Virus record (IMG/VR): IMGVR_UViG_3300020047_006293
Strand: one strand, 5' to 3'
DNA length: 64,000 bases
Origin: an uncultured virus (IMG/VR IMGVR_UViG_3300020047_006293)
Taxonomy: Duplodnaviria > Heunggongvirae > Uroviricota > Caudoviricetes
Under the pieces are notes generated by a model that was not told where the DNA came from, made no database searches, and worked only from the letters and a program-made list of their open reading frames with translations. Of the stretch, positions 11,523-58,289 are shown in pieces; position 1 is the stretch's first letter; every line of letters starts with the position of its first letter. The position numbers and the translations under genes are program-made.

Positions 11523-12410
11523 GTGTCAAATCTAGCCCAATACCCCAACCCGCTCATGAACGCTCCGATACGCGTTGACACTGGTTTCAAGTCAGACAAC
11601 TATGAGCGCTTCATGTCCGAGAATCTAAAGATTATCGACAAAGACAAACAGCCAGTCCCATTCAACGTCAACCCAGCACAACAATCACTCAATGACTACA
11701 TGGAAATGTGCTACGACATCCTCGTTCTCAAAGCACGCAAGATGGGGTTCAGCTCGGACGCGTTAGGGATAGCAGTTACTAAGTTCCTACTCGGCCGCAA
11801 CGAGAAGTGTGTGTCTATGTCATTTGACCAGACTGCATCGGAAAAACAACTCAACCGTGCCAAGTACTACATCAAGAGCTACGAGGCTATAAACAACGTC
11901 AAAGTCCCACTAAAATACAACTCAAAGAATCAGATGGTATGGGAGGGCGTAGATGAGAATGGTGAGCACTTTACTAACATCCTCCAGGTTGGGTCAGCGC
12001 GTAATACCTCATTTGGCCGTGGTGATGACATCACGTTCCTCCACTTGACTGAGGTATCACTCGCCGATGTATACGAACTGATGGCTGGTGTTGGTGAGGC
12101 ATGTCTCCCGGGGGCGCATAAGATCCTAGAGACAACCGCTGCTGGGTTCAACACCTACAAGTCATACTGGGATGAGTCTATGCTCGGGATCACTGGATTT
12201 GCTAACCTGTTCTACTCTCCGCTGTGGGAATATACCCAAGAGTACGTTGATGAAAAACTAGGCAAACTAGGCCGTCTGGGCATGCAAGAGTACCCAATGA
12301 CGCCAGAGGAGGCATTCGTTACCAGTGGTCTGACATTCTTCGAGAACTACTCATTGATCAAGATGCTCAATGGCGTTAAGGCATGGGAGGCCAACCATGC
12401 TACCGTCTAA
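11523..12410 (+). CDS. Terminase large subunit, ATPase half
   Basis: LKARKMGFS Walker A, LHLTE Walker B, ETTA motif. Confidence 0.85.
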   Translation: MSNLAQYPNPLMNAPIRVDTGFKSDNYERFMSENLKIIDKDKQPVPFNVNPAQQSLNDYMEMCYDILVLKARKMGFSSDALGIAVTKFLLGRNEKCVSMSFDQTASEKQLNRAKYYIKSYEAINNVKVPLKYNSKNQMVWEGVDENGEHFTNILQVGSARNTSFGRGDDITFLHLTEVSLADVYELMAGVGEACLPGAHKILETTAAGFNTYKSYWDESMLGITGFANLFYSPLWEYTQEYVDEKLGKLGRLGMQEYPMTPEEAFVTSGLTFFENYSLIKMLNGVKAWEANHATV

Positions 12411-13071
12411 GGACTTTAAAACATTCAGGGCGTTGCGGCGCGGTGAGTTCTTCGTTGCTGGGGTAGACCCATCACACGGCGGCGGAGATAATACGGCCGG
12501 TCAGTTCATATCCCAGAAGTGGCTCGATGTACCGATGGTGTATCACTCACCCATGACGATCACTCACGCTACCCCTATGCTCGACAAAGCCATGAACTAC
12601 ATATCTACCGAGACTGGTGTCACGCCTGTGATTAGCTATGAGACTAATAATGGTGGTGACTTCGAGCTAGAGCGCCTAGGTAGACTAAATAGGTACGGGA
12701 TGTATCGTATAGCCACGGAGAAGCGAATTGACCCAACTGGTCGGCTGGTTGATACTGGTAAGATAGGCTGGAATACTAACACGGGTACACGGCCGAAGAT
12801 GCTCCGTGAGCTAAAAGAGGCCGTCGAGGGTGAGCTGATTCATATATACCATCGCCAGACGATAGATGAGATGTTCAGCTTTATCATTAACCAGGCAACA
12901 GGTAAGCCAGAAGCCGAGACCAACGCACATGATGATCTAGTCATGAGCCTCGCTATAGCTTGGCAGATGCAACAAACAGAAACCCCAATGATCGAACAAG
13001 GAGGTGGAGTAGTGGAAACAGACGAAGGACAACAGTTCTATAAAGACCCAGGCGTGGTGGTGGTTGGGTGA
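12397..13071 (+). CDS. Terminase large subunit, RNase H-like nuclease half
   Basis: GVDPSHGGGD, YETNNGG and HDDLVMSLAIA; own GGAGG RBS. Confidence 0.85.
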   Translation: MLPSKDFKTFRALRRGEFFVAGVDPSHGGGDNTAGQFISQKWLDVPMVYHSPMTITHATPMLDKAMNYISTETGVTPVISYETNNGGDFELERLGRLNRYGMYRIATEKRIDPTGRLVDTGKIGWNTNTGTRPKMLRELKEAVEGELIHIYHRQTIDEMFSFIINQATGKPEAETNAHDDLVMSLAIAWQMQQTETPMIEQGGGVVETDEGQQFYKDPGVVVVG

Positions 13072-13684: not shown

Positions 13685-13920
13685 TGGCTAAGGATACAAA
13701 ACCAACCGAGAAGCAGTTTTCGCTCAAGAATACTGAACTAAACCTGATCGGTAACATCAACCGACGACGGGATCAAGCTATCCTAGACGTATTTAGCTAC
13801 ATTGCTATCGAACGCCTAGCATATAACGTTACTGAACACACTCAGTTCCGCACTGACGAGAAGGGTGATCTATATATCTCTGAAATAGAGCCTACCCCTG
13901 AAGAAGTGGAGGTAGCGTAA
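13684..13920 (+). CDS. Hypothetical protein between groES and groEL
   Basis: Coupled ORF with TAATG overlaps at both ends. Confidence 0.6.
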   Translation: MAKDTKPTEKQFSLKNTELNLIGNINRRRDQAILDVFSYIAIERLAYNVTEHTQFRTDEKGDLYISEIEPTPEEVEVA

Positions 13921-15482
13921 TGAACCTACCAAAACGTGAGATCAAAAACATTACCTCTGGTGATGAGGCACGAACTAAGCTACTACACGGTGTAGAGACG
14001 ATCTACGCTGCAGTTAGCTCAACGTATGGGCCAGCTGGTAACAACGTAATACTCGGCATGCCTTATGGTGACTCAACCCTCACGCGTGACGGCGTAACCG
14101 TCGCTAAAAGGGTTATTCTCAAAGATCGTGCCGAGGACAATGCAGTCCAGATCATTCGTCAGGCTAGTGAGAAGACCAACAAGACAGCGGGTGATGGTAC
14201 AACCGCGACTGTCGTCCTGGCTCGTAACCTAGTTAAAGATGGCTACCGACTGATCGCAGCTGGTGAAAATGGTATGTTGCTCAAGAAGCAGATCGCGGCC
14301 GATAGCATAAAGGTGATCGACTTCCTCAAGGATAAATCAGAGGACGCAGAGGGCCACCTGCTAGACGTTGCTACCGTATCAGCTGGCGACCCTGCCATTG
14401 GTGCGCTTGTCAAAGACACCCTGGAGGACATCGGGCAGAACGGTGGTATTACCATTCGTGAGCAAGACTACCCGACTGTTGACGTCGAGAAGATCGGTGG
14501 CTACTACTTCGACAAGGGCTTCTTTGCCCTCAACCAGAAGATAGACCTACCTAACCCACTGATATTCGTCGCTGGCAAGAACATAGCTAGCAACGATGAA
14601 ATGATCCCCCTCCTCAGCCATGTCATTAACAGTGACAACAAGAACCTTGTCATCATTGGTGATGTACGCATGAACTCAGATGCCATGAACACCCTACTTC
14701 GTAACGTCCTAGAGGGTAAGCTGAACGCTGCAGTCGTACCACCACCAGCATTCAACAACGAGGGGCTTCTGTTTATGCAGGACATTGCGACCTACGTTGG
14801 CGCAAAGCTATTTACTGAAGGTGATGATCCAAAGGCTATCAAGGGCGGGCTTGAGTACTTTGGTACGGCAGAACGTGTTGTGGTTACCCAGGACGACGCT
14901 ATCATATTCAAAGGTGCTGGCTCTACTGAGGACATTGAAGTTCGTATCGCTGAGATCGAAGCACAGATCAAGGCTGAGAAGAGCGCACACCGCAAAGACC
15001 AGCTAGAGCAGCGTCTCGCCAAACTAACCGGCAAGATTGCTATCATCAACGTCGGTGGTTCAACCCCTACCGAGATGGAGGAGCTGCGCTACCGCGTCGA
15101 GGACTCTATAGAGGCTACTAAGTCAGCTATGGCAGATGGTGTGCTCCCTGGTGGTGCTACCATGTTGGTTAAAGCTGCAGCCCTCGACATATCACCGATG
15201 TTCAAGAACGCCCTCCTAGATACATTCCGCAAACTGATGTCTAACGCTGCCGAGAACGCTGAGAAGCGCCTAGGACAAGTGCAAGACGCTGAGTATGGGT
15301 TTGGGTTCAACCTACGTGCGATGACTGACCAGCCTATCGATCTACGTGAGTCTGGGGTATGGGACGCGACACGCGCTGTTACGCAGACCGTAGAGAATGC
15401 TACGAGTGCCGCAGGATCACTATTAACTGTTGGGGTGATCGTTGACCCTATCGACCAGGAGGAAGACGATGAGAACTCCTAA
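13920..15482 (+). CDS. groEL: Chaperonin GroEL (Cpn60), phage-encoded
   Basis: TYGPAG, TRDGVTVAK, AGDGTTAT, RVEDSIEATKSA and GVLPGG. Confidence 0.95.
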   Translation: MNLPKREIKNITSGDEARTKLLHGVETIYAAVSSTYGPAGNNVILGMPYGDSTLTRDGVTVAKRVILKDRAEDNAVQIIRQASEKTNKTAGDGTTATVVLARNLVKDGYRLIAAGENGMLLKKQIAADSIKVIDFLKDKSEDAEGHLLDVATVSAGDPAIGALVKDTLEDIGQNGGITIREQDYPTVDVEKIGGYYFDKGFFALNQKIDLPNPLIFVAGKNIASNDEMIPLLSHVINSDNKNLVIIGDVRMNSDAMNTLLRNVLEGKLNAAVVPPPAFNNEGLLFMQDIATYVGAKLFTEGDDPKAIKGGLEYFGTAERVVVTQDDAIIFKGAGSTEDIEVRIAEIEAQIKAEKSAHRKDQLEQRLAKLTGKIAIINVGGSTPTEMEELRYRVEDSIEATKSAMADGVLPGGATMLVKAAALDISPMFKNALLDTFRKLMSNAAENAEKRLGQVQDAEYGFGFNLRAMTDQPIDLRESGVWDATRAVTQTVENATSAAGSLLTVGVIVDPIDQEEDDENS

Positions 15483-16201: not shown

Positions 16202-18181
16202 ATGAATAAAGACGACACTATATTTTACGGCGGAATCGATGACAGCGTGTTTCTTAGCGCGGTCAAGCGCCGTCATGAGGAAGCTGAAAGTCACTGGAAC
16301 ACTAAGCCATATGACTTAAAGAAAGTCCGTGAACGCAACAACCGTGAGTACCTAGGCACCTACCTAGATGACAAGCTGATCGATGAACGCTACCAAGAGT
16401 ACTACCAGGACAACCGCCAGTTCACCTCAGTTCGCAGCATTGTGCCATTCCTGACAGCTCGCGTAACAGCCCCAGAGGTTACCCCATCTAACGGTAATGA
16501 CCTTAGTATCCAGTTTGCTCATGACTTTGAGGAGGTGCTACTGAGGCACGCCGAGGATCAACAAGCTAAATCCCTTGTCCGCCTCGCCGTGCAAGACGTT
16601 CTACGTGGTGAGCGCGTCGGTATACTCAAGTGGCGCTACGATGCCTCCCTAGATGACGTCATACTAGAGCATGTACCGGCTGACTCAGTAATCATCGGTA
16701 AACGTGCTCGTCAATTCGAGGAGCCTGATTACGTCTGTCACACAATAGAAAAGTCTGTTGCTGACATACTGCGTATGTTCCCTGACAATGCCGACAAGAT
16801 TAAAAAGGTATTTGGTATTAGTCGAGGTACACCGTCACAGCTTGAAAAAGTCTACAAGATACGTGAAGAGTGGCTATGGATGGACGCCGAGGGGAAGCGC
16901 CAGCTATGTGTAGGCTGGAGATGGCAGAACTGTTTGTTTGGTAAGATCACCGATCCTAACTGGAGCGAAAAGGGGAAGAACGTCATCAAACGACAGATGA
17001 TACCGTTCGTGTTCTTTAACTTCTTAAATGATGGCTCAGGCTGGGTAGACCAGACAGCTTTCATAGAACAGGCACACTGGCTTCAGTCTAACTACAATAA
17101 ACGTGGTCAGACAATCGCCGAGAACGCAAAATATGGTGGTACTGGTGTTCCTATCTTCGCTAAAGGTGCAATTGCTCAGAAGGATGTTGCTAAGATACGG
17201 TTCAGCCCTATCCAGCGTGTTCTTCTTGATTCCCCTGATGTCAGCAAGGCATTTACCGTCTGGCAGTCAACGCCGTTGCCACAGTACATCGTTGAAGACA
17301 AGTACGATGACCGCAACTCTATAGATAACGTATGGGGAACGCCAAACATCTTCCGCGGCGAGCAGTCAAAGAACAACACTCTAGGGCAGGACGTTATAGT
17401 CCGCGACCAGGCTGAGGGCCGTCTCGGTGACCCTGTAGACTGTATCGACGCATCAATGACTCGCTTCTACCAACTAGAGGCACAGATGCTCTACCGCTAC
17501 TTCGACGAGAAGAAATACTACAACTACATCGGTAACGATGGTAAGTTTGTATCTGTTGCTATCGACCAGGCTGATATAGCCAAAAACCTTGGCATAAAGA
17601 TCAACGTCAAAGCTGGTACATCGCTACCAATCGACCGTGCTCAAAAACGTGCGACCATTATGGAGCTTCTAAAGATAGGTAAGGTTGGAACACTCGCAGC
17701 CTACAAAGAACTTGGTGTATTTGAAGACCCAGAGGCAGCCTACAAAGAGTTTGTACTTGAACAACTCGACCCGATCAAGTCTCTGCAAGATGTCGATAAA
17801 CAAGTATTCAGCCGTGAAGCTAACGAGGATCTGCAACTGGTTATCGGCGGTAAAGTACCTGAAGAACGCGAAGACATTGGCCCTGAGTACATCGCCTACC
17901 TGAATGAGTGGCTACTGACTGACAAATATATGCTACTCCAGACTGATAAGCCTGAAGCTGCTGCACGCGTATCTGTGTTCATTGACGACGTGATCGCTAA
18001 AGCAGACCGCAAGGCCGCTAAACTGCAAATGCAGCCAGCCCCTGATGCCGGTTCAATCCCACCTGAAGTTCAGCAAATGGTAGACGCCCAGTCTGGCGCT
18101 ACACCTGGACAGCCAGGCGCACCAGCTCAGGCTCCTATGGCACCTCCACCTAGCGCTCCACCAGCTCCCGTAGTACAATAG
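16202..18181 (+). CDS. Portal protein
   Basis: 659 aa, between terminase and scaffold, Pro/Gln-rich tail, P22-like portal patterns. Confidence 0.8.
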   Translation: MNKDDTIFYGGIDDSVFLSAVKRRHEEAESHWNTKPYDLKKVRERNNREYLGTYLDDKLIDERYQEYYQDNRQFTSVRSIVPFLTARVTAPEVTPSNGNDLSIQFAHDFEEVLLRHAEDQQAKSLVRLAVQDVLRGERVGILKWRYDASLDDVILEHVPADSVIIGKRARQFEEPDYVCHTIEKSVADILRMFPDNADKIKKVFGISRGTPSQLEKVYKIREEWLWMDAEGKRQLCVGWRWQNCLFGKITDPNWSEKGKNVIKRQMIPFVFFNFLNDGSGWVDQTAFIEQAHWLQSNYNKRGQTIAENAKYGGTGVPIFAKGAIAQKDVAKIRFSPIQRVLLDSPDVSKAFTVWQSTPLPQYIVEDKYDDRNSIDNVWGTPNIFRGEQSKNNTLGQDVIVRDQAEGRLGDPVDCIDASMTRFYQLEAQMLYRYFDEKKYYNYIGNDGKFVSVAIDQADIAKNLGIKINVKAGTSLPIDRAQKRATIMELLKIGKVGTLAAYKELGVFEDPEAAYKEFVLEQLDPIKSLQDVDKQVFSREANEDLQLVIGGKVPEEREDIGPEYIAYLNEWLLTDKYMLLQTDKPEAAARVSVFIDDVIAKADRKAAKLQMQPAPDAGSIPPEVQQMVDAQSGATPGQPGAPAQAPMAPPPSAPPAPVVQ

Positions 18182-19260: not shown

Positions 19261-20331
19261 TTGGATTACTCTCGACTAGTGACCACCACATCACAATCAG
19301 TCGCGCCATACGTGGTCGACGCAATTCACGGTAGCTCAGTCCTCGTCGGACGTGTTACCGGTGGTAAGAACATGAAACCATGGGACATGGGTATCTACGA
19401 ACGACAGCCAATACAGGTGTCTGAAGTATCGACTGCCGTTGACTTCCAGGGTATCGGTAACTTTAACACCGCTGACAACACGACAGATGTCAACTTGCAG
19501 TGGGAAGCAAAAGGTCTCGGTGACTCAGTCATCATCGGTTACGCAGAACTTGGTCTGAACCAAACTAAGGCTCAGGTCATCAACTTGGTTAAACGCAAAT
19601 TTGACGTCGTCAAAAACTCGTTGATCGCAGCAGCTGGTACTCGTCTTTACGGACTCGGTGCCGGTAGCGCAATCGACGGTCTGCAGTTAATGACGGACGC
19701 TGGTACTTACTCAAGCTCATACGGTGGCCTAAGCCGTACAACTTACGGTACAGCTATCAACGGACAGGTTACACCTGCATCAGCTGGTGTCATCTCATTC
19801 AACAGCCTCGCAGCACAGATCGACCTGTGTAGCGCAGCTGCATCTGGCATGGAAGCAACAAACCTCGTACTGACAACTAAGAGTGTCTGGGCGCTGGTTG
19901 AGAAGCTGGTAGAGTCTAAGAGTCGCGGTAACTACGACACAAGCCGTGGTAACCTCCGTGTTTCACCATACACACCAATGGGTGTTGCGGTTGACGCAAG
20001 TGACGCTGGACGTGCTGGTTACGAAGCTATCTACTTCCGTGGTATCCCAGTTGTGAAAGACGACCAGTGTTCTACTGGCTTGGTCTACACACTGAACGAG
20101 AACTACCTACAGTTCGTAAGCTCGAAGGTTGCTTACTGTGAATCTATCAAGATGAAGCAGACAGTTACCAAGGGTGCGCTTGAAGAAGTTAACACGACTG
20201 CATGGCAAGTATCAACAGAGGCAAAGCCTACCAACGGCCTCGGTGATGTCCGTCAAATCCTCGCTTACGGAAACTTCGTTAACCGAAGCCCATTCCGCAG
20301 CGGTGTTATAACAGGTGTAACAACAACCTAA
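19261..20331 (+). CDS. Major capsid protein
   Basis: 356 aa after the scaffold; YGGLSR and FRGIPVVKD patterns; strong RBS. Confidence 0.8.
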   Translation: MDYSRLVTTTSQSVAPYVVDAIHGSSVLVGRVTGGKNMKPWDMGIYERQPIQVSEVSTAVDFQGIGNFNTADNTTDVNLQWEAKGLGDSVIIGYAELGLNQTKAQVINLVKRKFDVVKNSLIAAAGTRLYGLGAGSAIDGLQLMTDAGTYSSSYGGLSRTTYGTAINGQVTPASAGVISFNSLAAQIDLCSAAASGMEATNLVLTTKSVWALVEKLVESKSRGNYDTSRGNLRVSPYTPMGVAVDASDAGRAGYEAIYFRGIPVVKDDQCSTGLVYTLNENYLQFVSSKVAYCESIKMKQTVTKGALEEVNTTAWQVSTEAKPTNGLGDVRQILAYGNFVNRSPFRSGVITGVTTT

Positions 20332-38141: not shown

Positions 38142-38915
38142 ATGTCAGCACGAGACTATTCAGTAACCTTCCCATACGGAGCCACTGACGCCCCGTACTC
38201 AGTTTCTAAACCTCATAGGGGTAACGACCGCCCGTGTCCTACCGGAACCCCAGTAGTTATAGGCGAGACGACAATAGGTTGGACTGGCTCGACAGGGTGG
38301 GCTACAGGGCCACACCTCCATACACAGGCAGGGAGCGATCTCTGGTGCCAGCAGACATTCAACCCAACAGGTTTAGAATTTCGTGGCGGAACTGTCGCAG
38401 CGAAAGGCTGGGCTGACCAGTGGGGAAACTACGTGATCATTAACACTGGGGCAGGTTATATCTGCTACGCGCATCTTTCCCAAACCAACGCAACAGTTGG
38501 ACAAATAATTAACGGAGTATCGACAGGAGGTACAGCAGTGGACACAATCAAATCTATGTACTGGCGTCTTCTCGGACGAGAGGCAGACCAGGATGGTATC
38601 AACACCTACGTCAAAGCGGCAGCAGAACGAGGCTGGGAGTTTGTTTACACAGACCTCAAAAACTCACCAGAAGGTCAAACTGACTGGGATAGGCGTAACC
38701 CTACCCGAGTCGCAGCCCTCGAAAAGCAGCTCGCTGATGTAAAAGCAGCCCTTGTAACCGCCGAGAACAAGCCACCAGTCGAAGTCATAAAAGTCGTGGA
38801 GAAGATCGTCGAGAAACCTGTAGGGGGTATCGACGAGGCTACCAAAGCTCAGATTAACGAAACCAATGCTATCGCCAAGTGGCTACAGTCAGCGTGGAAC
38901 AAGGTTTTCAAGTAA
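38142..38915 (+). CDS. M23-family peptidase endolysin
   Basis: HRGND, TGPHLH, GNYVII and YAHL; C-terminal LLGREAD cell-binding-like domain. Confidence 0.8.
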   Translation: MSARDYSVTFPYGATDAPYSVSKPHRGNDRPCPTGTPVVIGETTIGWTGSTGWATGPHLHTQAGSDLWCQQTFNPTGLEFRGGTVAAKGWADQWGNYVIINTGAGYICYAHLSQTNATVGQIINGVSTGGTAVDTIKSMYWRLLGREADQDGINTYVKAAAERGWEFVYTDLKNSPEGQTDWDRRNPTRVAALEKQLADVKAALVTAENKPPVEVIKVVEKIVEKPVGGIDEATKAQINETNAIAKWLQSAWNKVFK

Positions 38916-38925
38916 AGGAGTAATC

Positions 38926-39156
38926 ATGTTTACTAAACTATTTTGGATGGACACCCTAGAACGTGCTATACGCACCTTCGCACAAGGGTTTCTCTCTGTC
39001 ACCACACTAGCCTCAACAGGTTGGCTAGAAGCTAACTGGGACGCAGCTTTAATGACTGGTGCTGTTGCAGCATTTCTATCAGTTGTGACCAGCCTCGTGA
39101 GTTCTGGTAGTGGCAACTCTGCCTCATTCGTCGTTGACGCAAAGAAAATGAAGTAG
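38926..39156 (+). CDS. Holin (r1t-like)
   Basis: FWMDTLERAIRTFAQ motif and two TM segments; AGGAG RBS. Confidence 0.8.
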   Translation: MFTKLFWMDTLERAIRTFAQGFLSVTTLASTGWLEANWDAALMTGAVAAFLSVVTSLVSSGSGNSASFVVDAKKMK

Positions 39157-39405
39157 CCATGGAAATGCGGGATGAACACGAACGATTCGTCGAAGGTGCC
39201 ATCCCCCACGACATCGACCCTGAATCAATCGCTACTCTTATAGCCTTCCAAAAAGCTATAGAAGACAACAAGCGAGCAGAAACTTTACCGGACATCTGGG
39301 ACTGACCTAGCAAGCCTTGACGGCCGGAAAATCAAGCGCATACTAAGAGCAGCACCTTCACATCTCATATGCACGGCCAAGTTAAGTTTAGAAAAGAGTT
39401 TAGTT

Positions 39406-39738
39406 ATGAAAGAAGTTAAAGCCCTGAGAGGTAGGTCATATAGGACCCTCCTTAAAGTTGATTACAATGACGCCCCAACTGGGTTCGCAGTGTTTGTGGC
39501 GCACGATGACCTAGATAGCCTTATAGGGCGTCTGATGCAGATGTGCGACCTCATAGGCGACCAAGAACAGCGCAAAGCGCTCAAGGACACGATTAAGGGT
39601 ATTTCGAGAGAATGGCTCGACGGTATCTACAGTGATTCAGGATACGAAAAATGGACGGGTATAGCTGGCGGGGTTAGACCCGTCGTTATACAGGAAACTG
39701 TGTTTGTCAAACTAAGCGAAGACAAACCAGTCGAATAA
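39406..39738 (+). CDS. Hypothetical protein enclosed by an inverted repeat; homolog at 52758..53105
   Basis: Shared LDxLIxR...LK...ISRxWLDxxYxDxGY motif. Confidence 0.75.
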   Translation: MKEVKALRGRSYRTLLKVDYNDAPTGFAVFVAHDDLDSLIGRLMQMCDLIGDQEQRKALKDTIKGISREWLDGIYSDSGYEKWTGIAGGVRPVVIQETVFVKLSEDKPVE

Positions 39739-39809
39739 TAATCACTTGGCCGTGGTTACGAGATGTGAGATAATGTGCACATACCGCTTCGCAGGTAGCA
39801 CGTATCAGC

Positions 39810-39919
39810 TGTGAGCAGTACGGAGCGAAAGCTCTATCGCTAAACAAGCGGAGGAGCCAATTGATCTTCACCCTATATGGGTAGTTGTCCAGCCGATCAA
39901 CTCCTCCGTACTGCTCATA
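39810..39919 (+). ncRNA. Putative four-way-junction ncRNA, copy 1
   Basis: tgagcagtacgg/ccgtactgctca stem, GAGC-GAAA-GCTC hairpin; covaries with 52573-52701. Confidence 0.65.
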
Positions 39920-40013
39920 CACGCGTGCGACAGGCCCACCATTGACGGTGGGCTGATTGTTTGGTTAAATAGAGGCATACGAGGGTCTAAACTTGTATGC
40001 TTAGGAGCACTAG

Positions 40014-40040
40014 AAGACGCCTCTACCCAGGCGTCTTTTT
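40014..40040 (+). terminator. Intrinsic terminator
   Basis: aagacgcct-ctaccc-aggcgtctt followed by a T tract. Confidence 0.7.
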
Positions 40041-40160: not shown

Positions 40161-40523
40161 ATGTCGGAGTTTGAAGGCCACTTACCAACCATGCGGCTAA
40201 AAGGTGAGGACGGTGAGTTCGACGTCACACCGGAAAATGGGGTGTTGTATCGTCACCTAGGCGAGCGAGCAATCTTTGACAATATCTTTATGGTGACTGG
40301 CCTAAAAGACGATGGCTCGCGTGAGGGTACACCAGTATTTCTCAGAGGCTTTGTAGACGACGCCACTACAGCCCAGATAACGCACTTTATGATCACGAGA
40401 GGGTACGAGTGCCACCTGAACCTTCCGGACGTCATGGAGGCGTTCGTGGATGTCCACAGCAAGTTTTTGGCGCGTGAGACTGCTGATGTTGGTGATACAG
40501 TACCCGATGATTGGCTCGCATAA
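40161..40523 (+). CDS. Hypothetical protein; homolog of 1..345
   Basis: Near-identical translation. Confidence 0.8.
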   Translation: MSEFEGHLPTMRLKGEDGEFDVTPENGVLYRHLGERAIFDNIFMVTGLKDDGSREGTPVFLRGFVDDATTAQITHFMITRGYECHLNLPDVMEAFVDVHSKFLARETADVGDTVPDDWLA

Positions 40524-41340: not shown

Positions 41341-41369
41341 TTGACCTACTCAACCGCTTGTGCTACAAT
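41341..41369 (+). promoter_or_regulatory. Promoter with AACCGCTTGTGCTA spacer motif
   Basis: TTGACC-17-TACAAT; motif repeated at 45120-45149 and 46110-46138. Confidence 0.7.
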
Positions 41370-41395
41370 GGAAGTAAATCAACGAAAGGATTTGT

Positions 41396-41959
41396 ATGAC
41401 AAAGAAGTTGTCGGATATTGTCAAAAAGAACGAGTTAGCTAAGTTCAACAGGGCTGACGAGTTCCTTGAGTTCGTAAACCAAGAGCCACCTGCAATATTC
41501 ATTGAGAAACATCCGATGGCTAAGGGTGTAGACTATATCCCTATCGGCAACACCGAGCTTACTATGGATAAGATATTCCAGTACTGGGGAGTCGAAGTGT
41601 TGAAAACGGAAGTAATGTTTAACGCTATAGCAGTCACGGTCAGGGTGAACTATAAACACCCTATATCTGGAGAGTGGATGCACCAGGACGGAGTTGGCGC
41701 AGTAGGTGTTCAGACTGATAAAGGATTCACGGCTGCTGATCTAGCTCATATAAAGCAAGATGCCGTGATGAAAGCCTTACCAGCTGCAAAGTCGTTCGCT
41801 ATCAAGGACGCAGTTGATCACATTGGTAAGATATTTGGCCGTGACCTCAACAGAAAGAACACCTTTGACTTTACCCCCTCATACGGAACCCAAGCCGTCA
41901 AGGACGAGTTAGAGATAAAGAAAGAGAAACTAAGGAACATAGTTAGGAAACCTCAATGA
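41396..41959 (+). CDS. Rad52/Sak/ERF-like single-strand annealing protein
   Basis: YIPIG, DGVGA and KIFGRDL motifs; next to an exonuclease. Confidence 0.65.
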   Translation: MTKKLSDIVKKNELAKFNRADEFLEFVNQEPPAIFIEKHPMAKGVDYIPIGNTELTMDKIFQYWGVEVLKTEVMFNAIAVTVRVNYKHPISGEWMHQDGVGAVGVQTDKGFTAADLAHIKQDAVMKALPAAKSFAIKDAVDHIGKIFGRDLNRKNTFDFTPSYGTQAVKDELEIKKEKLRNIVRKPQ

Positions 41960-44761: not shown

Positions 44762-45133
44762 ATGCAATTGCAACCTAAAAAGCCCTGTAAATGGTGCGGA
44801 GAGTTCCCCGCCCGGCACTTTGCCTACCAGTGCAGGGAAAACCCCAAAGTAAAATCCTACAGAATCCCACAAATAGGCAAAGAAACAATCGAGTATAATA
44901 AATGGCGTGACACTGTAGCAAAACCGTACTTAGATAAAAAGTATGGTCGTGTCTGCCAGGCGTGTTTTGGGGCTAGATGTGGTAACAAGCAACTAGATGT
45001 TGAACATACGAAGAGTAGAGGCGGTCACCACGAGCTAAAAAAGGTACTGAGCAACGTAACTTATATGGGTCGTTACCCCTGTCACTTTGAGAAAACTAAC
45101 AATATCAAGCACGAAAGTCTTGACAAAACATAA
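44762..45133 (+). CDS. HNH/NinG-like nuclease
   Basis: CKWC, CQAC and H...N...CH arrangement. Confidence 0.55.
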   Translation: MQLQPKKPCKWCGEFPARHFAYQCRENPKVKSYRIPQIGKETIEYNKWRDTVAKPYLDKKYGRVCQACFGARCGNKQLDVEHTKSRGGHHELKKVLSNVTYMGRYPCHFEKTNNIKHESLDKT

Positions 45134-45149
45134 CCGCTTGTGCTATACT
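45120..45149 (+). promoter_or_regulatory. Promoter with AACCGCTTGTGCTA motif
   Basis: TTGACA-18-TATACT. Confidence 0.65.
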
Positions 45150-45331
45150 TCCAGTACAGTCATGAAAGGATTGTATAAGCCTCGGGGATGTAGATAGCCC
45201 CACGCCATAAACGCTACAAGGCACGAAGCTTAGGAACACAAATCGGCTAGTCTCCGCTGGACTGGTGATGCCCACCCTTACCAGCCCAGCGGAGACTAGC
45301 CGATACATACCAACTAACAGGAGAAATCCAA

Positions 45332-46109: not shown

Positions 46110-46138
46110 TTGCATGATTCAACCGCTTGTGCTACAAT
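46110..46138 (+). promoter_or_regulatory. Promoter with AACCGCTTGTGCTA motif
   Basis: TTGCAT-17-TACAAT, just after a terminator hairpin (aaaagccg...cggctttt). Confidence 0.65.
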
Positions 46139-46164
46139 GAGTACATATCAATGAAAGGATTAGT

Positions 46165-46706
46165 ATGAAAGACCTACAAATATACTGCAAGCGAGTGATA
46201 GTTGAGGCCGACAGTGCAGATAGTAACCTAGTAACGCTAGAAGGATTCGATCTTAGTGAAGTCACTTCAAATTTCACCGTAGCTGAGATACTAGACAACA
46301 TGGAACTTTCCGACATTCACGAGTACGTCACTAGCAAAGTAGAAGATGGAGAGATGGACTCATGAACCTCACCAAACTACAGAAGGTGGTCTACAATGCC
46401 TACCTCGAAGATAGCCGGGTAGTTGACGACGACGCGCTGCTACAGGCTACCGTGTGGAGTAAATACTGGGACGACCGAAAGAGCCTCTACGAAAACCTCA
46501 AGATATGTCCACGTGCCGAGAGTCTTTCACGCCGTCGCCGAGAACTTTACATCATGGGGCTTATCACCTACTCGGATTCCAAGCTCAAAGAGCGTACGGA
46601 CGCATTCAAAAACGAACGTGACATGCACAGCGACAATTGGTTCACCGCATGGATGAATGAGACAACAGGCCAACTAGAAAAACTTACAGTAAGGACAAAA
46701 CCATGA
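46165..46706 (+). CDS. Two hypothetical proteins (46165..46365 and 46362..46706)
   Basis: Coupled ORFs with RBS. Confidence 0.6.
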
Positions 46707-52572: not shown

Positions 52573-52701
52573 ATGTGAGTAGTACGGAGCGAAAGCTCTT
52601 GAGAATTTTTCTAAGGCGGAGGAGCCAGTTGATCTACCACTACCTATTTTGGTAAGTGGAGCGCGAGATTGATCGGATCAACTCCTCCGTACTACTCACA
52701 T
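52573..52701 (+). ncRNA. Putative four-way-junction ncRNA, copy 2
   Basis: tgagtagtacgg/ccgtactactca; compensatory change relative to copy 1. Confidence 0.65.
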
Positions 52702-52757
52702 ACTTCACAATTCACATCTCATATGCACGGCCAAGTACAAGAATAAGGAACATACAT

Positions 52758-53105
52758 ATGCTCAATACAGCACAAGAAAAAGAACGCGCAGAGCAACCGA
52801 TGCGCGCATACAATCCGTTGATAAACAACGGAGCGTATTTCGTATTGGTTAGCCATCGAGAGCTAGATACTCTCATCGCTAGGTTTATGCACCTAGCTGA
52901 ACTAGACAGTGACATAGAACACCGCAACGCCATGAAAGGCGAGCTGAAATCAATCTCGCGAAATTGGCTCGATAATCTATACGAAGACGCGGGGTACAAG
53001 AACCATTGCCTTGACAACACTGGACAAGTAGTTGACTTAGTTGGTATGTCGACAGCACCAGATCAGCCCACATCGACCAAATTGCGGCTCCGCACCGTAA
53101 TCTAA
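52758..53105 (+). CDS. Hypothetical protein enclosed by an inverted repeat; homolog of 39406..39738
   Basis: AAGGA RBS before ATG 52758; shared motif. Confidence 0.75.
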   Translation: MLNTAQEKERAEQPMRAYNPLINNGAYFVLVSHRELDTLIARFMHLAELDSDIEHRNAMKGELKSISRNWLDNLYEDAGYKNHCLDNTGQVVDLVGMSTAPDQPTSTKLRLRTVI

Positions 53106-53153
53106 ACGGAACTAACCGCCTTGGCCGTGGTTACGAGATGTGAACAATTAACA

Positions 53154-54366: not shown

Positions 54367-55257
54367 ATGATAACCCACTACGACTTGTTCGCTGGAATAG
54401 GCGGCTTTTCACTAGCACTAGACGAGGTATTTTATGACGAAGAAATCAAACACATCTTCTGTGAATGGGAGTCATTCCCAACTGCAGTCCTCAAAAAGCA
54501 CTGGCCAGAAGGAATATACTATGGCGACATCGCAGAGCTTGTTGCCGACCTCGTTACCCACACCAACGACAAGAGATTGGAAGGGGGCGAGCGGTCGAGC
54601 CTACAAGGGCGAGGCACAGGACTTGCCAGGAACTTTACTATCGTTACCGGCGGTTTCCCCTGCCAACCATTCAGCCACGCTGGACGAAGAAAAGGAACGG
54701 CAGACGACCGCTACCAGTGGCCGAACATGTTTGAGGTTATACGAAACGTCAAGCCCGACTGGGTCGTCGCTGAAAACGTGCGTGGCCTCGTTACTTGGAA
54801 CGACGGCCTGGTACTCGAAACAATCTGCACTGACTTGGAAAGCGAAGGCTACGAAGTACAACCGTTTATTATTCCAGCTGTCGCCGTCGGTGCGCCGCAC
54901 AGGAGGGATAGAGTCTGGATTGTTGCCAACCGCACGAACGTCAGACGCAAAGGGCGGAGTGAGGCCGAACGATGGCAGGGCGAGGATAAGCCTAGCAACG
55001 GGGCAAAGGTATGGCTTGAACCTAGCAGACAAAATACATGGCCCAACTGGTCAAGAAGCTGGCAAGAAGTTGCGTTTGCAACCTGCCATGACGGAGTGGA
55101 TGATGGGCTACCCCGATGGATGGACGGAGTTACCATATCCGCCGCACGACATCGAAAGGAGCGACTAAAGGCTATGGGAAATGCGATAGTGCCGCAGGTG
55201 GTGATGGAGATATTCGCAGCCATAAAGAATGTAGATTATGGAGATCAAGATGACTAA
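54367..55257 (+). CDS. C5-cytosine DNA methyltransferase, alpha-type subunit
   Basis: DLFAGIGGF, GGFPCQPFS, ENV, HRRDRVW and GNAIVPQ. Confidence 0.92.
   Translation: MITHYDLFAGIGGFSLALDEVFYDEEIKHIFCEWESFPTAVLKKHWPEGIYYGDIAELVADLVTHTNDKRLEGGERSSLQGRGTGLARNFTIVTGGFPCQPFSHAGRRKGTADDRYQWPNMFEVIRNVKPDWVVAENVRGLVTWNDGLVLETICTDLESEGYEVQPFIIPAVAVGAPHRRDRVWIVANRTNVRRKGRSEAERWQGEDKPSNGAKVWLEPSRQNTWPNWSRSWQEVAFATCHDGVDDGLPRWMDGVTISAARHRKERLKAMGNAIVPQVVMEIFAAIKNVDYGDQDD
54434..55168 (+). CDS. Overlapping-frame methyltransferase beta-type subunit
   Basis: Nested +1 frame ORF with LPTPTTRDWK and LQPAMTEWMMGYPDGWT (motif IX-like). Confidence 0.7.
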   Translation: MTKKSNTSSVNGSHSQLQSSKSTGQKEYTMATSQSLLPTSLPTPTTRDWKGASGRAYKGEAQDLPGTLLSLPAVSPANHSATLDEEKERQTTATSGRTCLRLYETSSPTGSSLKTCVASLLGTTAWYSKQSALTWKAKATKYNRLLFQLSPSVRRTGGIESGLLPTARTSDAKGGVRPNDGRARISLATGQRYGLNLADKIHGPTGQEAGKKLRLQPAMTEWMMGYPDGWTELPYPPHDIERSD

Positions 55258-56666: not shown

Positions 56667-57452
56667 ATGTACGAAAAATCAGCCCTTTTCATAGAAGATC
56701 AGCTCACGATCATCGACAAGAATGGTAATGAGGTAGACTTTCAACTCAATGCTATGCAGCGTAAGTTCGTCGAGGAAGCAACGGGCAAAGACATTATCCT
56801 CAAAGGCCGCCAGATGGGGTTCTCATCATTCATACTTGGCGCCTTTACTAAGGACTTTATCTTCAAAGAGAACAGCCTATCAGTGGTCATCGCTGACATA
56901 GCAGACAACGCACAAGACCTCCTAGGACGTGTTAAACACTACATACGAGCCTACGAGCAAGCGAACAACGTCAAAGTCCCGCTCAAGTACAACTCAAAGT
57001 ACGAACTCCAGAACGCCTACAACAACGCACGTTACATTATCGGTACAGCTGAGAACACAGAGTTTGGGCGATCTAAGACGATCACCAACCTTCACATGTC
57101 CGAGGCTGCCTTTTACAAACACTTCCGCAAGCTTCACGCATCAGCCGGTACGGCACTCACCCCTACTGGACGGTTTGTTATAGAGACTACAGCCAACGGA
57201 TTTAACGAGTTCAAATCATTCTGGGACGAGTCAGTGAATGGTGAGACAGGGTTTAAGGCTCATTTCTACACATCACATGGTTTCTATCCTCCTGAGTACA
57301 TAGAGAGCGAGAGAAAGCGTCTAGGACGATTGTTTGACCAGGAGCACCCAGAGACGGCCGAGATAGCGTTTATCACGTCTGGTGAGCTTTATTTTGATAC
57401 TGAGTCCCTCCGAGACCTCCTCAAACTAACACGGGAGCCTATGAAGGTATGA
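56667..57452 (+). CDS. Terminase large subunit, ATPase half
   Basis: LKGRQMGFS, LHMSE and ETTANG; homologous to 11523..12410. Confidence 0.88.
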   Translation: MYEKSALFIEDQLTIIDKNGNEVDFQLNAMQRKFVEEATGKDIILKGRQMGFSSFILGAFTKDFIFKENSLSVVIADIADNAQDLLGRVKHYIRAYEQANNVKVPLKYNSKYELQNAYNNARYIIGTAENTEFGRSKTITNLHMSEAAFYKHFRKLHASAGTALTPTGRFVIETTANGFNEFKSFWDESVNGETGFKAHFYTSHGFYPPEYIESERKRLGRLFDQEHPETAEIAFITSGELYFDTESLRDLLKLTREPMKV

Positions 57453-57655
57453 ATGAGCAGAACTTAGCTGAGGCTATAAAATCTCTACGTGAAGCGGGAG
57501 AAGTACGAGAGCCACTATATCTGTATGCGCCTACTGACGCTATCGCTGAGTACTTAAGCTCTGTTTATCCTGGCGTTGATGTACGTGTCACACCAAAAGA
57601 AATGATGCCGAAAGACACTGTTTTTGTATTAACGGGCGGTGAACATGAACTTTAG
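57449..57655 (+). CDS. Small protein between the two terminase halves
   Basis: 68 aa ORF overlapping both neighbours. Confidence 0.55.
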   Translation: MNEQNLAEAIKSLREAGEVREPLYLYAPTDAIAEYLSSVYPGVDVRVTPKEMMPKDTVFVLTGGEHEL

Positions 57656-58289
57656 ACGCTACCGTGACTACAAACCTGGTGAGTTCCTAGTTGTTGGCGT
57701 AGACACGGCCTGGGGCGGCACCGACTATTGTAGCGCCCAATTTCTCAGTAAGACCGAACTAGATGTACCCACTGTGTATCACTCAAGGGTTCTAGCAAGT
57801 GAAATGACCCCGCACATCCACGCAGAATTAGAAAGGATTTATGATGTCACAAAGGTCAAGCCTGTGGTTGCGTTTGAAAGAAACAATGGCGGAGTTGCTG
57901 AAATTGAGCGGCTCGCAACGCTTAACCGTAACGGCAAATACCGAATCTATACCGAAAAGTCTAACGTTGGAACTACTGAAGCTACAGGCGAATCCGTCAC
58001 GCTTGGATGGACTACAAGCTCTGCATCTCGACCTACTATGCTCGCAATGCTCAAAGAAATGGTTGACGGAAAGCTTGTACGTATATACGACAAACCAACA
58101 ATTACCGAAATGTTCTCATTCATCGTCTCCCAAACCTCAAGCAGCTGGAAAGCCCAAGCAGAGTCAGGAGCCCACGACGACCTGATCATGGCCCTCGCTA
58201 TAGCTTGGCAGCTCTACCAGACAGAGAACCCACCACCAAAGCCACAGAAGCTTCCAGAATACAAACCAATGAACTTTATGACCAACTAG
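57645..58289 (+). CDS. Terminase large subunit, nuclease half
   Basis: GVDTAWGGTD, FERNNGG and HDDLIMALAIA. Confidence 0.88.
   Translation: MNFRRYRDYKPGEFLVVGVDTAWGGTDYCSAQFLSKTELDVPTVYHSRVLASEMTPHIHAELERIYDVTKVKPVVAFERNNGGVAEIERLATLNRNGKYRIYTEKSNVGTTEATGESVTLGWTTSSASRPTMLAMLKEMVDGKLVRIYDKPTITEMFSFIVSQTSSSWKAQAESGAHDDLIMALAIAWQLYQTENPPPKPQKLPEYKPMNFMTN

Follow-up and report, generated by a model that had tools for sequence, protein, structure and literature searches.

What purpose do the paired arms serve that enclose a small gene at two places in one stretch of phage DNA? The stretch, 64,000 nucleotides of an uncultured virus of the Caudoviricetes (IMG/VR record IMGVR_UViG_3300020047_006293; hereafter the window), contains a pair of related phage genomes of temperate type, arranged head to tail: bases 1-300 are repeated at 40179-40478 with 92% identity, and further blocks recur about 40.2-41.5 kb apart. 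Each genome carries one module, called W1 in unit 1 and W2 in unit 2, in which an open reading frame (ORF) of an unannotated family stands between an upstream and a downstream arm; related loci are given L numbers. The arms could be ends of a mobile DNA element, or the two strands of a helix in the message. The reading favored here, with a probability of about 0.6, is that the 5' and 3' untranslated regions (UTRs) of the message are clamped end to end at the RNA level, most likely as a stalk for processing by a double-strand RNase and for stabilization, on a portable, moron-like cassette. The parts of the two modules are the following.

39358..39381, + strand: 5' arm of the unit-1 helix, UCACAUCUC AUAUG CACGGCCAAG
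39382..39405, + strand: leader with ribosome-binding site, UUAAGUUUAGAAAAGAGUUUAGUU, conserved and predicted to be mostly unpaired
39406..39738, + strand: ORF P0001, 110 amino acids (aa), a small acidic phage protein of an unannotated family
39745..39768, + strand: 3' arm of the unit-1 helix, CUUGGCCGUG GUUAC GAGAUGUGA, 6 nt past tandem stop codons
52712..52735, + strand: 5' arm of the unit-2 helix, same as the unit-1 arm
52736..52757, + strand: leader of unit 2, UACAAGAAUAAGGAACAUACAU, which departs from the family consensus
52758..53105, + strand: ORF P0002, 115 aa, a diverged family member
53120..53143, + strand: 3' arm of the unit-2 helix, same as the unit-1 arm

As DNA, the 5' arm reads TCACATCTC-ATATG-CACGGCCAAG on the + strand at 39358-39381 and 52712-52735, and its partner, read on the - strand, TCACATCTC-GTAAC-CACGGCCAAG at 39745-39768 and 53120-53143. 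Four matches in the window compare with 0.02 expected by chance, and none of 100 shuffled sequences reached four. A first-pass annotation of this DNA had placed the arms at these positions, as two inverted pairs identical letter for letter in both units, and this holds. It had also described a 5x5 internal loop at the center of the stem; a mismatched central region does exist there, but it is not fully open, since it runs, from the outer helix inward, A.C, U-A, A-U, U.U, G.G and so retains two inner pairs. Most of these central positions are paired in relatives, and in L008 the whole region is.

The pairing of the arms is conserved, covaries, and is specific to this gene family. The exact arm pattern occurs as inverted pairs in five IMG/VR contigs, plus their metagenome duplicates; every such pair in the IMG/VR contigs surrounds a member of the same family, and three also surround an 85-aa Cys-rich ORF. 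Across 185,579 species genomes the pattern gave 25 single matches, none with a properly placed inverted partner, and these are therefore read as chance; one IMG/VR locus (L010) has a lone arm with no partner within 4 mismatches. Where loci were retrieved by protein similarity instead (8 of the close subfamily, 28 of the distant one) and the 70 nt before the start codon were compared with the 65 nt after the stop codon, 23 of 37 distinct family loci showed an inverted match with a score of 12 or more. The same comparison for the 117 ORFs of the window raised only the two module ORFs to this level (19.5 and 19.0); the next best scored 10, and the median was 6.5. A scan with the leader motif returned at least 120 loci, mostly chance, and eight of those listed have a partner with at least 19 of 24 pairs. 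Among these listed matches, four have a partner starting with CTTG, all of them around family members (hidden Markov model E 8e-11 to 8e-19); the other four lack the CTTG start and hold either no ORF of at least 40 aa or a single 43-aa ORF, which has no match to the family profiles. Rfam 15 gave no match at gathering scores over the whole window, and around both modules and three related loci only chance-level scores (E 0.24 or more).

The enclosed proteins P0001 and P0002 share 46% identity across a 57-residue core (E 2e-19), which bears out the original description of the two ORFs as homologous and strongly diverged. P0001 has 27 close metagenome relatives, and a five-member profile finds 257 cluster representatives at E <=1e-3, 50 of them at E <=1e-10. 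Family members are almost all 70-170 aa long, diverge to about 25% identity, and share the core motif L-D-x-L-[IV]-G-[RK]-[LM]-x(6)-D-x(5)-[EQ]-Q-R-x-A-x-K-x(8)-W; they are acidic, with a median isoelectric point (pI) of 5.3 and a value below 6 in 85% of 172 members. No match with a meaningful score was found in Pfam (2 + 44 family proteins) or in PHROGs (2 + 23 family proteins). The AlphaFold model of P0001 consists of a β-hairpin followed by two helices (pLDDT 74.8, pTM 0.47); Foldseek found no match to it at E <=1e-3 in PDB or BFVD, and the ESM Atlas yielded no named neighbor. Among GenBank phages there was neither a DNA match to 39300-40000 nor a tblastn match to P0001. The system had not been recognized as a named one at the outset, and the protein, having no Pfam, PHROG, or fold match, leaves it so. 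The 85-aa ORF that lies within the same helix at L006 (2536-2790, - strand), L009, and L011 carries CxxC...H motifs and has no Pfam match.

For the anatomy of the helix, 19 alignable instances, representing 18 distinct arm pairs, were anchored on the near-invariant, ORF-proximal CCAAG / CUUGG. Positions 1-24 are paired in most lineages; beyond position 24, pairing occurs in only 9/18 and 8/18. The arms pair with their own partner at a mean of 19.9 of 24 positions. Sliding the partner by 1-3 nt lowers this to 8.2-10.4, arms of other lineages give 15.1, and none of 5000 partner permutations equaled the observed total; four instances contain a one-base bulge and hence score low in this gapless count. 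Many positions show three to four Watson-Crick pair types. The outer half can be wholly different among lineages and yet complementary, as in UCACAUCUC/GAGAUGUGA, AUCCGUAUCC/GGGUACGGAU, and GCACCUUAACA/UGUUAGUGUGC, with 9.6 of 12 positions paired to the own partner versus 5.9 of 12 to arms of other lineages. Certain non-Watson-Crick positions recur: position 12 is U.U in 9/18, and position 15 is A.C in 6/18 and A-U in 7/18. The 3' strand carries a conserved GGUU.

That these arms work as RNA is suggested by three properties: a wobble bias on the sense strand, a fixed spacing to the translation signals, and the placement of -10 elements; together they favor sense-strand RNA over DNA ends. The mismatches within the helix comprise 42 G.U/U.G against 15 A.C/C.A as read on the sense strand, and unbiased DNA alignments of the arms contain 46 sense-wobble against 17 antisense-wobble transitions (binomial p 3e-4, with lineages that are not independent of each other). 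The 5' arm ends 17-26 nt upstream of the AUG, and the 3' arm begins 9-24 nt past the stop codon. The interval between 5' arm and AUG holds a conserved A/U-rich leader, GUUWAGUUUAGAARGAGUUUAGU, with a strong ribosome-binding site, and the interval between stop codon and 3' arm often holds a conserved UAAUUAACC motif. A TANNNT -10 hexamer stands 6-8 nt before the first paired base in 5/18 lineages, against a background of 0.15, and at L100 the order is terminator, TGcTATAAT, helix, ORF, helix, TGcTATAAT, next gene. It is thus very probable that the arms form a 24-bp long-range RNA helix between the 5' UTR and the 3' UTR. The view of the first-pass annotation that the mRNA is looped out by a conserved, recognizable stem is strengthened by the compensatory changes in relatives and by the G.U bias of the sense strand.

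Promoter-like sites occur on either side of W1, where their number in a consensus scan of the module region is not above that in shuffled sequences.

39317..39344, + strand: promoter-like site, TTGACG, 16 nt, CATACT; consensus match only
39746..39774, + strand: promoter-like site overlapping the 3' arm, TTGGCC, 17 nt, TG-n-GATAAT; consensus match only, and not present in all relatives

The -10 element of the first site ends 13 nt ahead of the 5' arm and 8 nt ahead of a possible outer extension of the helix (GCAC/GUGC). The second site belongs to a more general observation, as an extended -10 (TGnTATAAT or GATAAT) is often found overlapping the 3' arm or just after it: at 39746-39774 in the window, at L071 and L088 (both judged by eye from the flanks), and at L100. 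The 3' arm may therefore double as part of the next promoter. A promoter as the main function of the 3' arm was considered and rejected, since such a site, though seen in W1 and, by eye, in L071 and L088, lacks conservation. A different arrangement is seen at L006, L007, L008, L009, and L011, where the roughly 220 nt ahead of the 5' arm hold a sigma-70-like promoter, a leader some 170 nt long, and a strong terminator, the last ending 8 nt upstream of the arm. This layout resembles a late leader of the lambda PR'-tR' type, so that the cassette would there be read only through read-through or antitermination.

Folding of full-length messages (342-497 nt) forms the helix in nine of nine cases, with a mean pair probability of 0.78-0.98, while the segment from -14 to +3 around the start codon is 0.48-0.80 unpaired in the same nine folds. 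As the start region is largely open in these predictions, the helix is not a translational lock of the icaR or hok type. The proposed mechanism is as follows. The 5' UTR and 3' UTR of one small phage gene would pair into the 24-bp helix, whose length corresponds to the roughly two turns (20 bp or more) of double strand expected of an RNase III stalk. A double-strand RNase (RNase III-type) would cut this stalk and so release a monocistronic message from the surrounding transcript; the paired ends would then shield the message from both 5' and 3' decay, and translation would not be blocked by the helix. Because such a stalk would free the message and leave both of its ends paired, the gene would become independent of its landing site. 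The gene, its leader and ribosome-binding site, the stop codons, and the helix would move together as a self-contained, moron-like cassette, and the conserved arms could double as homologous DNA for the exchange of gene alleles between phages. Cleavage by an RNase III-type stalk mechanism is the part of this model on which the analysis is evenly divided; the nearest alternative would be a pure clamp without cleavage, in the manner of hbs.

An extension of the model, which we consider improbable, would make the cassette a portable closed-loop message that combines RNase insulation, an end clamp, and ribosome hand-back, with the arms as DNA crossover points. In such a message the helix would begin at or next to the first base of the transcript, bringing together the stop codon and the ribosome-binding site, which lie 9-24 nt and 17-26 nt from it, respectively, so that terminating ribosomes could be passed back to the start site; cutting by a double-strand RNase would insulate the gene from any host transcript, and both ends would be clamped. 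If this were true, what defines the mobile unit would be an RNA structure and not a recombinase, and phages would swap alleles of a fast-evolving accessory protein at the arms.

The positions of the cassette vary. It follows endolysin or holin genes in W1, L069, L070, L087, and L088; it lies between SSB and TerS, directly behind a terminator, in L006-L009 and L011; it stands beside terminase genes in W2, L068, and L071, and among head genes in L066, L100, and L101. Within the window, the W1 module ends the 40,178 bp of phage unit 1, after the holin gene (38866-39153), and the W2 module belongs to an accessory region upstream of the methyltransferase (54367-55254) and terminase (56667-58286) genes, in agreement with the initial statement that the modules occupy different genomic locations. 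L006 and L007 have near-identical flanks, and their similarity breaks exactly after ...CCAAG and returns exactly at CTTGG..., with unrelated-looking family members between the arms. Homologous exchange at the conserved arms would be the simplest account of this swapped cargo. No consistent target duplication was found in the flanks of W1, W2, L006, and L008, nor any recombinase-like feature: ACAAT flanks both ends in W2 only, not in W1, L006, or L008, and close relatives provided no pair of empty and filled sites. In the comparison of unit 1 with L100, the neighboring head gene is homologous (36% identity) and the downstream gene is not, so that no precise empty site could be defined. The earlier proposal of a mobile protein-plus-RNA system thus survives in part: gene, arms, and leader act as a portable cassette, as seen from the varied sites and the exact swap, but an obligatory RNA partner is not supported.

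Several observations weigh against the clamp and have to be set beside the rival explanations. In unrestricted RNAduplex energies the sense duplex is the stabler one in only 23 of 37 cases (Wilcoxon p 0.07, not significant), and in the window copies the antisense duplex scores better than the sense duplex. No clear flanking repeat is found at 14 of 37 family loci, including four that look G+C-rich (L074, L079, L082, L085), so the helix is not universal in the family. Covarying inverted repeats are equally expected of transposon ends bound by one protein. Finally, sequence conservation in the arms goes well beyond what a generic RNase III substrate requires: they are identical in both units around ORFs of 46% identity over the core; this points to sequence-specific recognition or to recombination. 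Either possibility leads to a different view of the arms. They could be the terminal inverted repeats of an ultra-small DNA mobile element, similar to MPME or to a cargo-bearing miniature inverted-repeat transposable element (MITE), moved by cut-and-paste or copy-in, possibly with the enclosed protein as its transposase. The differing positions in related phages, the identity of the arms around diverged ORFs, and the 5-nt ACAAT at both ends of W2 would all suit such an element, as would the precedent of MPME1, an element of 439 bp with inverted repeats that occupies differing sites in closely related phages (PMC3029335). We nevertheless regard it as unlikely, and as slightly the weaker of the two views: the arm mismatches lean to sense-strand G.U (42 versus 15 and 46 versus 17), the helix keeps a fixed distance from start and stop codons, with a -10 element 6-8 nt ahead of it in 5/18 lineages, the flanking duplication is inconsistent (none in W1, L006, or L008), the copies form a deeply diverged gene family rather than near-identical elements, and the protein is small and acidic, with no transposase or nuclease signature in Pfam, PHROG, PDB, or BFVD.

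Recognition by a factor is the other possibility. Here a sequence-specific factor, perhaps the gene's own product, would use the helix as an RNA operator, binding at the U.U and A.C positions and autoregulating translation or decay. Helix and protein do stay together even in very remote family members, certain non-Watson-Crick pairs return from lineage to lineage (U.U at position 12 in 9/18, A.C at position 15 in 6/18), the 3' strand retains its GGUU, and the arms are conserved past the needs of pairing; the predicted fold, a β-hairpin with a helical hairpin, also counts in its favor. An operator of this kind seems doubtful, given that the family is acidic (median pI 5.3, 85% below 6), that searches of the family gave no RNA-binding domain or fold match, and that the central mismatches become ordinary pairs in L008, L096, and L070. 

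A further alternative concerns a folded element next to each module, which the first-pass annotation had joined with the protein into one system.

39810..39919, + strand: junction RNA, copy 1, 41 nt past the 3' arm
39933..39954, + strand: terminator-like hairpin after the junction RNA
40012-40039: second terminator-like hairpin
52574..52700, + strand: junction RNA, copy 2, ending 11 nt short of the 5' arm

The same element does adjoin both modules, downstream in unit 1 and upstream in unit 2, as had been noted. It is about 110 nt long, and the two copies are 82% identical by column. Their RNA folding z-scores are -7.4 and -6.2, and the opposite strand folds about as well (-4.9 and -7.1). In the consensus fold there are a closing stem of 12 bp, a GGAGC-GAAA-GCUCU hairpin, a short variable hairpin that is not the same sequence in both copies, and a long arm with 7 + 6 bp (GGAGGAG..UUGAUC/GAUCAA..CUCCUCC); the closing stem contains one compensatory pair and one G.U/G-C change. 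Protein and junction RNA could thus form a two-part system, such as a toxin-antitoxin-like or anti-defense ribonucleoprotein, that moves as one unit. The presence of the element beside both modules at two genomic sites speaks for this, as do its conserved stems with varying loops, the compensatory pair, and the replacement in place of the small hairpin. A covariance model built from the two copies matched nothing else in the window and 42 related loci (227 kb), so that among homologs the arms recur (23 of 37 family loci) and the RNA does not (0 of 42 loci). A gapped motif had no match in IMG/VR viral contigs, and an exact 17-mer occurs at two further loci that the model does not match; at L222, the one of the two that was read, it falls in a run that looks protein-coding. 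No Rfam family corresponds to the element. Moreover, RNA and gene do not follow each other in the same order in the two copies, the ORF does not encode a small hydrophobic toxin, and the RNA lacks repeats of the type III antitoxin kind. The two-part reading as a general association is largely refuted, and we give it very little weight.

As it is found in the two window copies only, the junction RNA is not a general partner of the protein; on the sequences searched, it is a structured element in its own right, confined to these two phages. One possibility is that it is a small RNA that starts from the promoter-like site in the 3' arm (39746-39774), which could drive the downstream folded element, and that ends at the hairpin 39933-39954; it could be a fragment freed by processing of the helix, since cutting of the helix would release the neighboring RNA from the same transcript; or it could be a small palindromic DNA element. 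Unrelated, strongly folded elements are also seen right after the 3' arm at L008 (2634-2827, 194 nt) and L006 (2328-2481, 154 nt), closed by stems of 17-21 bp and 10 bp, respectively, and without an Rfam family.

The two genomes that carry the modules, each of about 40 kb, lie on one 81-kb contig (81,356 bases), either as a tandem prophage pair or as a concatemer assembled from two strains. Their recognizable genes, all assigned by PHROG matches, include the following.

1001-1858: integrase, unit 1
11523-13068: terminase pieces, unit 1
13920-15479: GroEL-like gene, unit 1
16202-18178: portal, unit 1
19261-20328: major head protein, unit 1
38866-39153: holin, unit 1
54367-55254: methyltransferase, unit 2
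56667-58286: terminase pieces, unit 2

The GroEL-like chaperonin gene (520 aa; PHROG 5725, E 2e-106) sits between the terminase and portal genes of unit 1. The large terminase consists of two ORFs in each unit, which overlap in unit 1 (11523-12407, 12370-13068) and are split by a 68-aa ORF in unit 2 (56667-57449, 57449-57652, 57639-58286); the gene could be frameshifted, interrupted by an intron or intein, or truly split. The portal protein comes closest, among GenBank phages, to that of a TM7 (Saccharibacteria) phage, at 30% identity, and the host may for this reason be a bacterium of the candidate phyla radiation. A 50-nt family of promoter plus ribosome-binding site (TGTGCTACAAT ... AAAGGA) occurs in three copies, at 41350-41399, 45130-45179, and 46119-46168, ahead of early genes of unit 2.

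If the clamp is correct, its interest lies in a helix that is tied to one unannotated phage family and whose covariation is kept across lineages with proteins that are barely still recognizable as similar; its length is set at 24 bp, some of its non-Watson-Crick positions recur, and a conserved leader accompanies it. It offers a testable model of how phages might insulate and stabilize accessory genes that have landed in foreign operons, of conserved RNA arms that would also serve as recombination boundaries, and possibly of the effect of end pairing on translation; it would provide a natural part for a portable mRNA clamp, and it draws attention to a widespread protein family (257 cluster representatives) that has gone unannotated.

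To our knowledge, end-to-end pairing of bacterial mRNAs is on record for a handful of single genes only (hbs, icaR, type I toxins), and long-range end pairing is well understood for rRNA precursors only. The mRNAs of the type I toxins hok and aapA1 are closed end to end and translationally inert, encode peptides of about 30-50 aa, and are countered by antisense RNAs. The cassette shares with them the closure of a whole mRNA by end pairing, but its product is an acidic protein of about 100 aa and its start is predicted to be open; family products of about 70-170 aa with a median pI of 5.3, and a minus strand of the module on which a consensus scan found no promoter-like site, do not fit a type I toxin-antitoxin system. 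Closer in form are the leader-trailer stalks of about two turns around 16S and 23S rRNA, where RNase III cutting releases an RNA with paired ends, and the RNase III sites of T7 early mRNA, where central internal loops are typical. As in the rRNA stalks, a helix of about two turns is built from both sides of a functional RNA; unlike these stalks and the T7 sites, which flank rRNAs or form local intergenic hairpins, the present one encloses a single protein-coding message and travels along with it. RNase III itself makes staggered double cuts in intramolecular stems (PMC6212723).

MPME1 and MPME2 are similar to the cassette in size (about 0.4 kb), in having a small ORF between inverted repeats, and in occupying differing sites in related phages. 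MPME copies are identical in sequence, with an insertion of 6 bp left at one end (PMC3029335); the cassettes, by contrast, hold deeply diverged ORFs and show no such footprint, and their repeats show a wobble bias of the RNA type. The near-identity of copies that marks MPME- or MITE-like elements is confined to the arms, around ORFs of 46% identity over 57 aa in a family reaching about 25%. With hbs and icaR, the cassette shares complementary 5' UTR and 3' UTR segments, present in predicted folds, and a pairing kept in evolution. In icaR of S. aureus, initiation is blocked by pairing of the 3' UTR with the Shine-Dalgarno region (Ruiz de los Mozos et al. 2013, PMC3868564); in the cassette the helix encloses the ribosome-binding site at a distance of 10-20 nt, and the site is predicted to be open. 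A limited literature search found no gene-enclosing helix conserved with a phage protein family, a result that does not establish its absence from print. The nearest relative in kind is the hbs mRNA of B. subtilis, in which a 14 bp helix between 5' and 3' UTR modulates an RNase Y site (Braun, Durand and Condon 2017, PMC5737220); where hbs is a single cellular gene with a 14 bp helix, the helix described here is 24 bp long, encloses the whole message, and covaries across a phage family at many sites.

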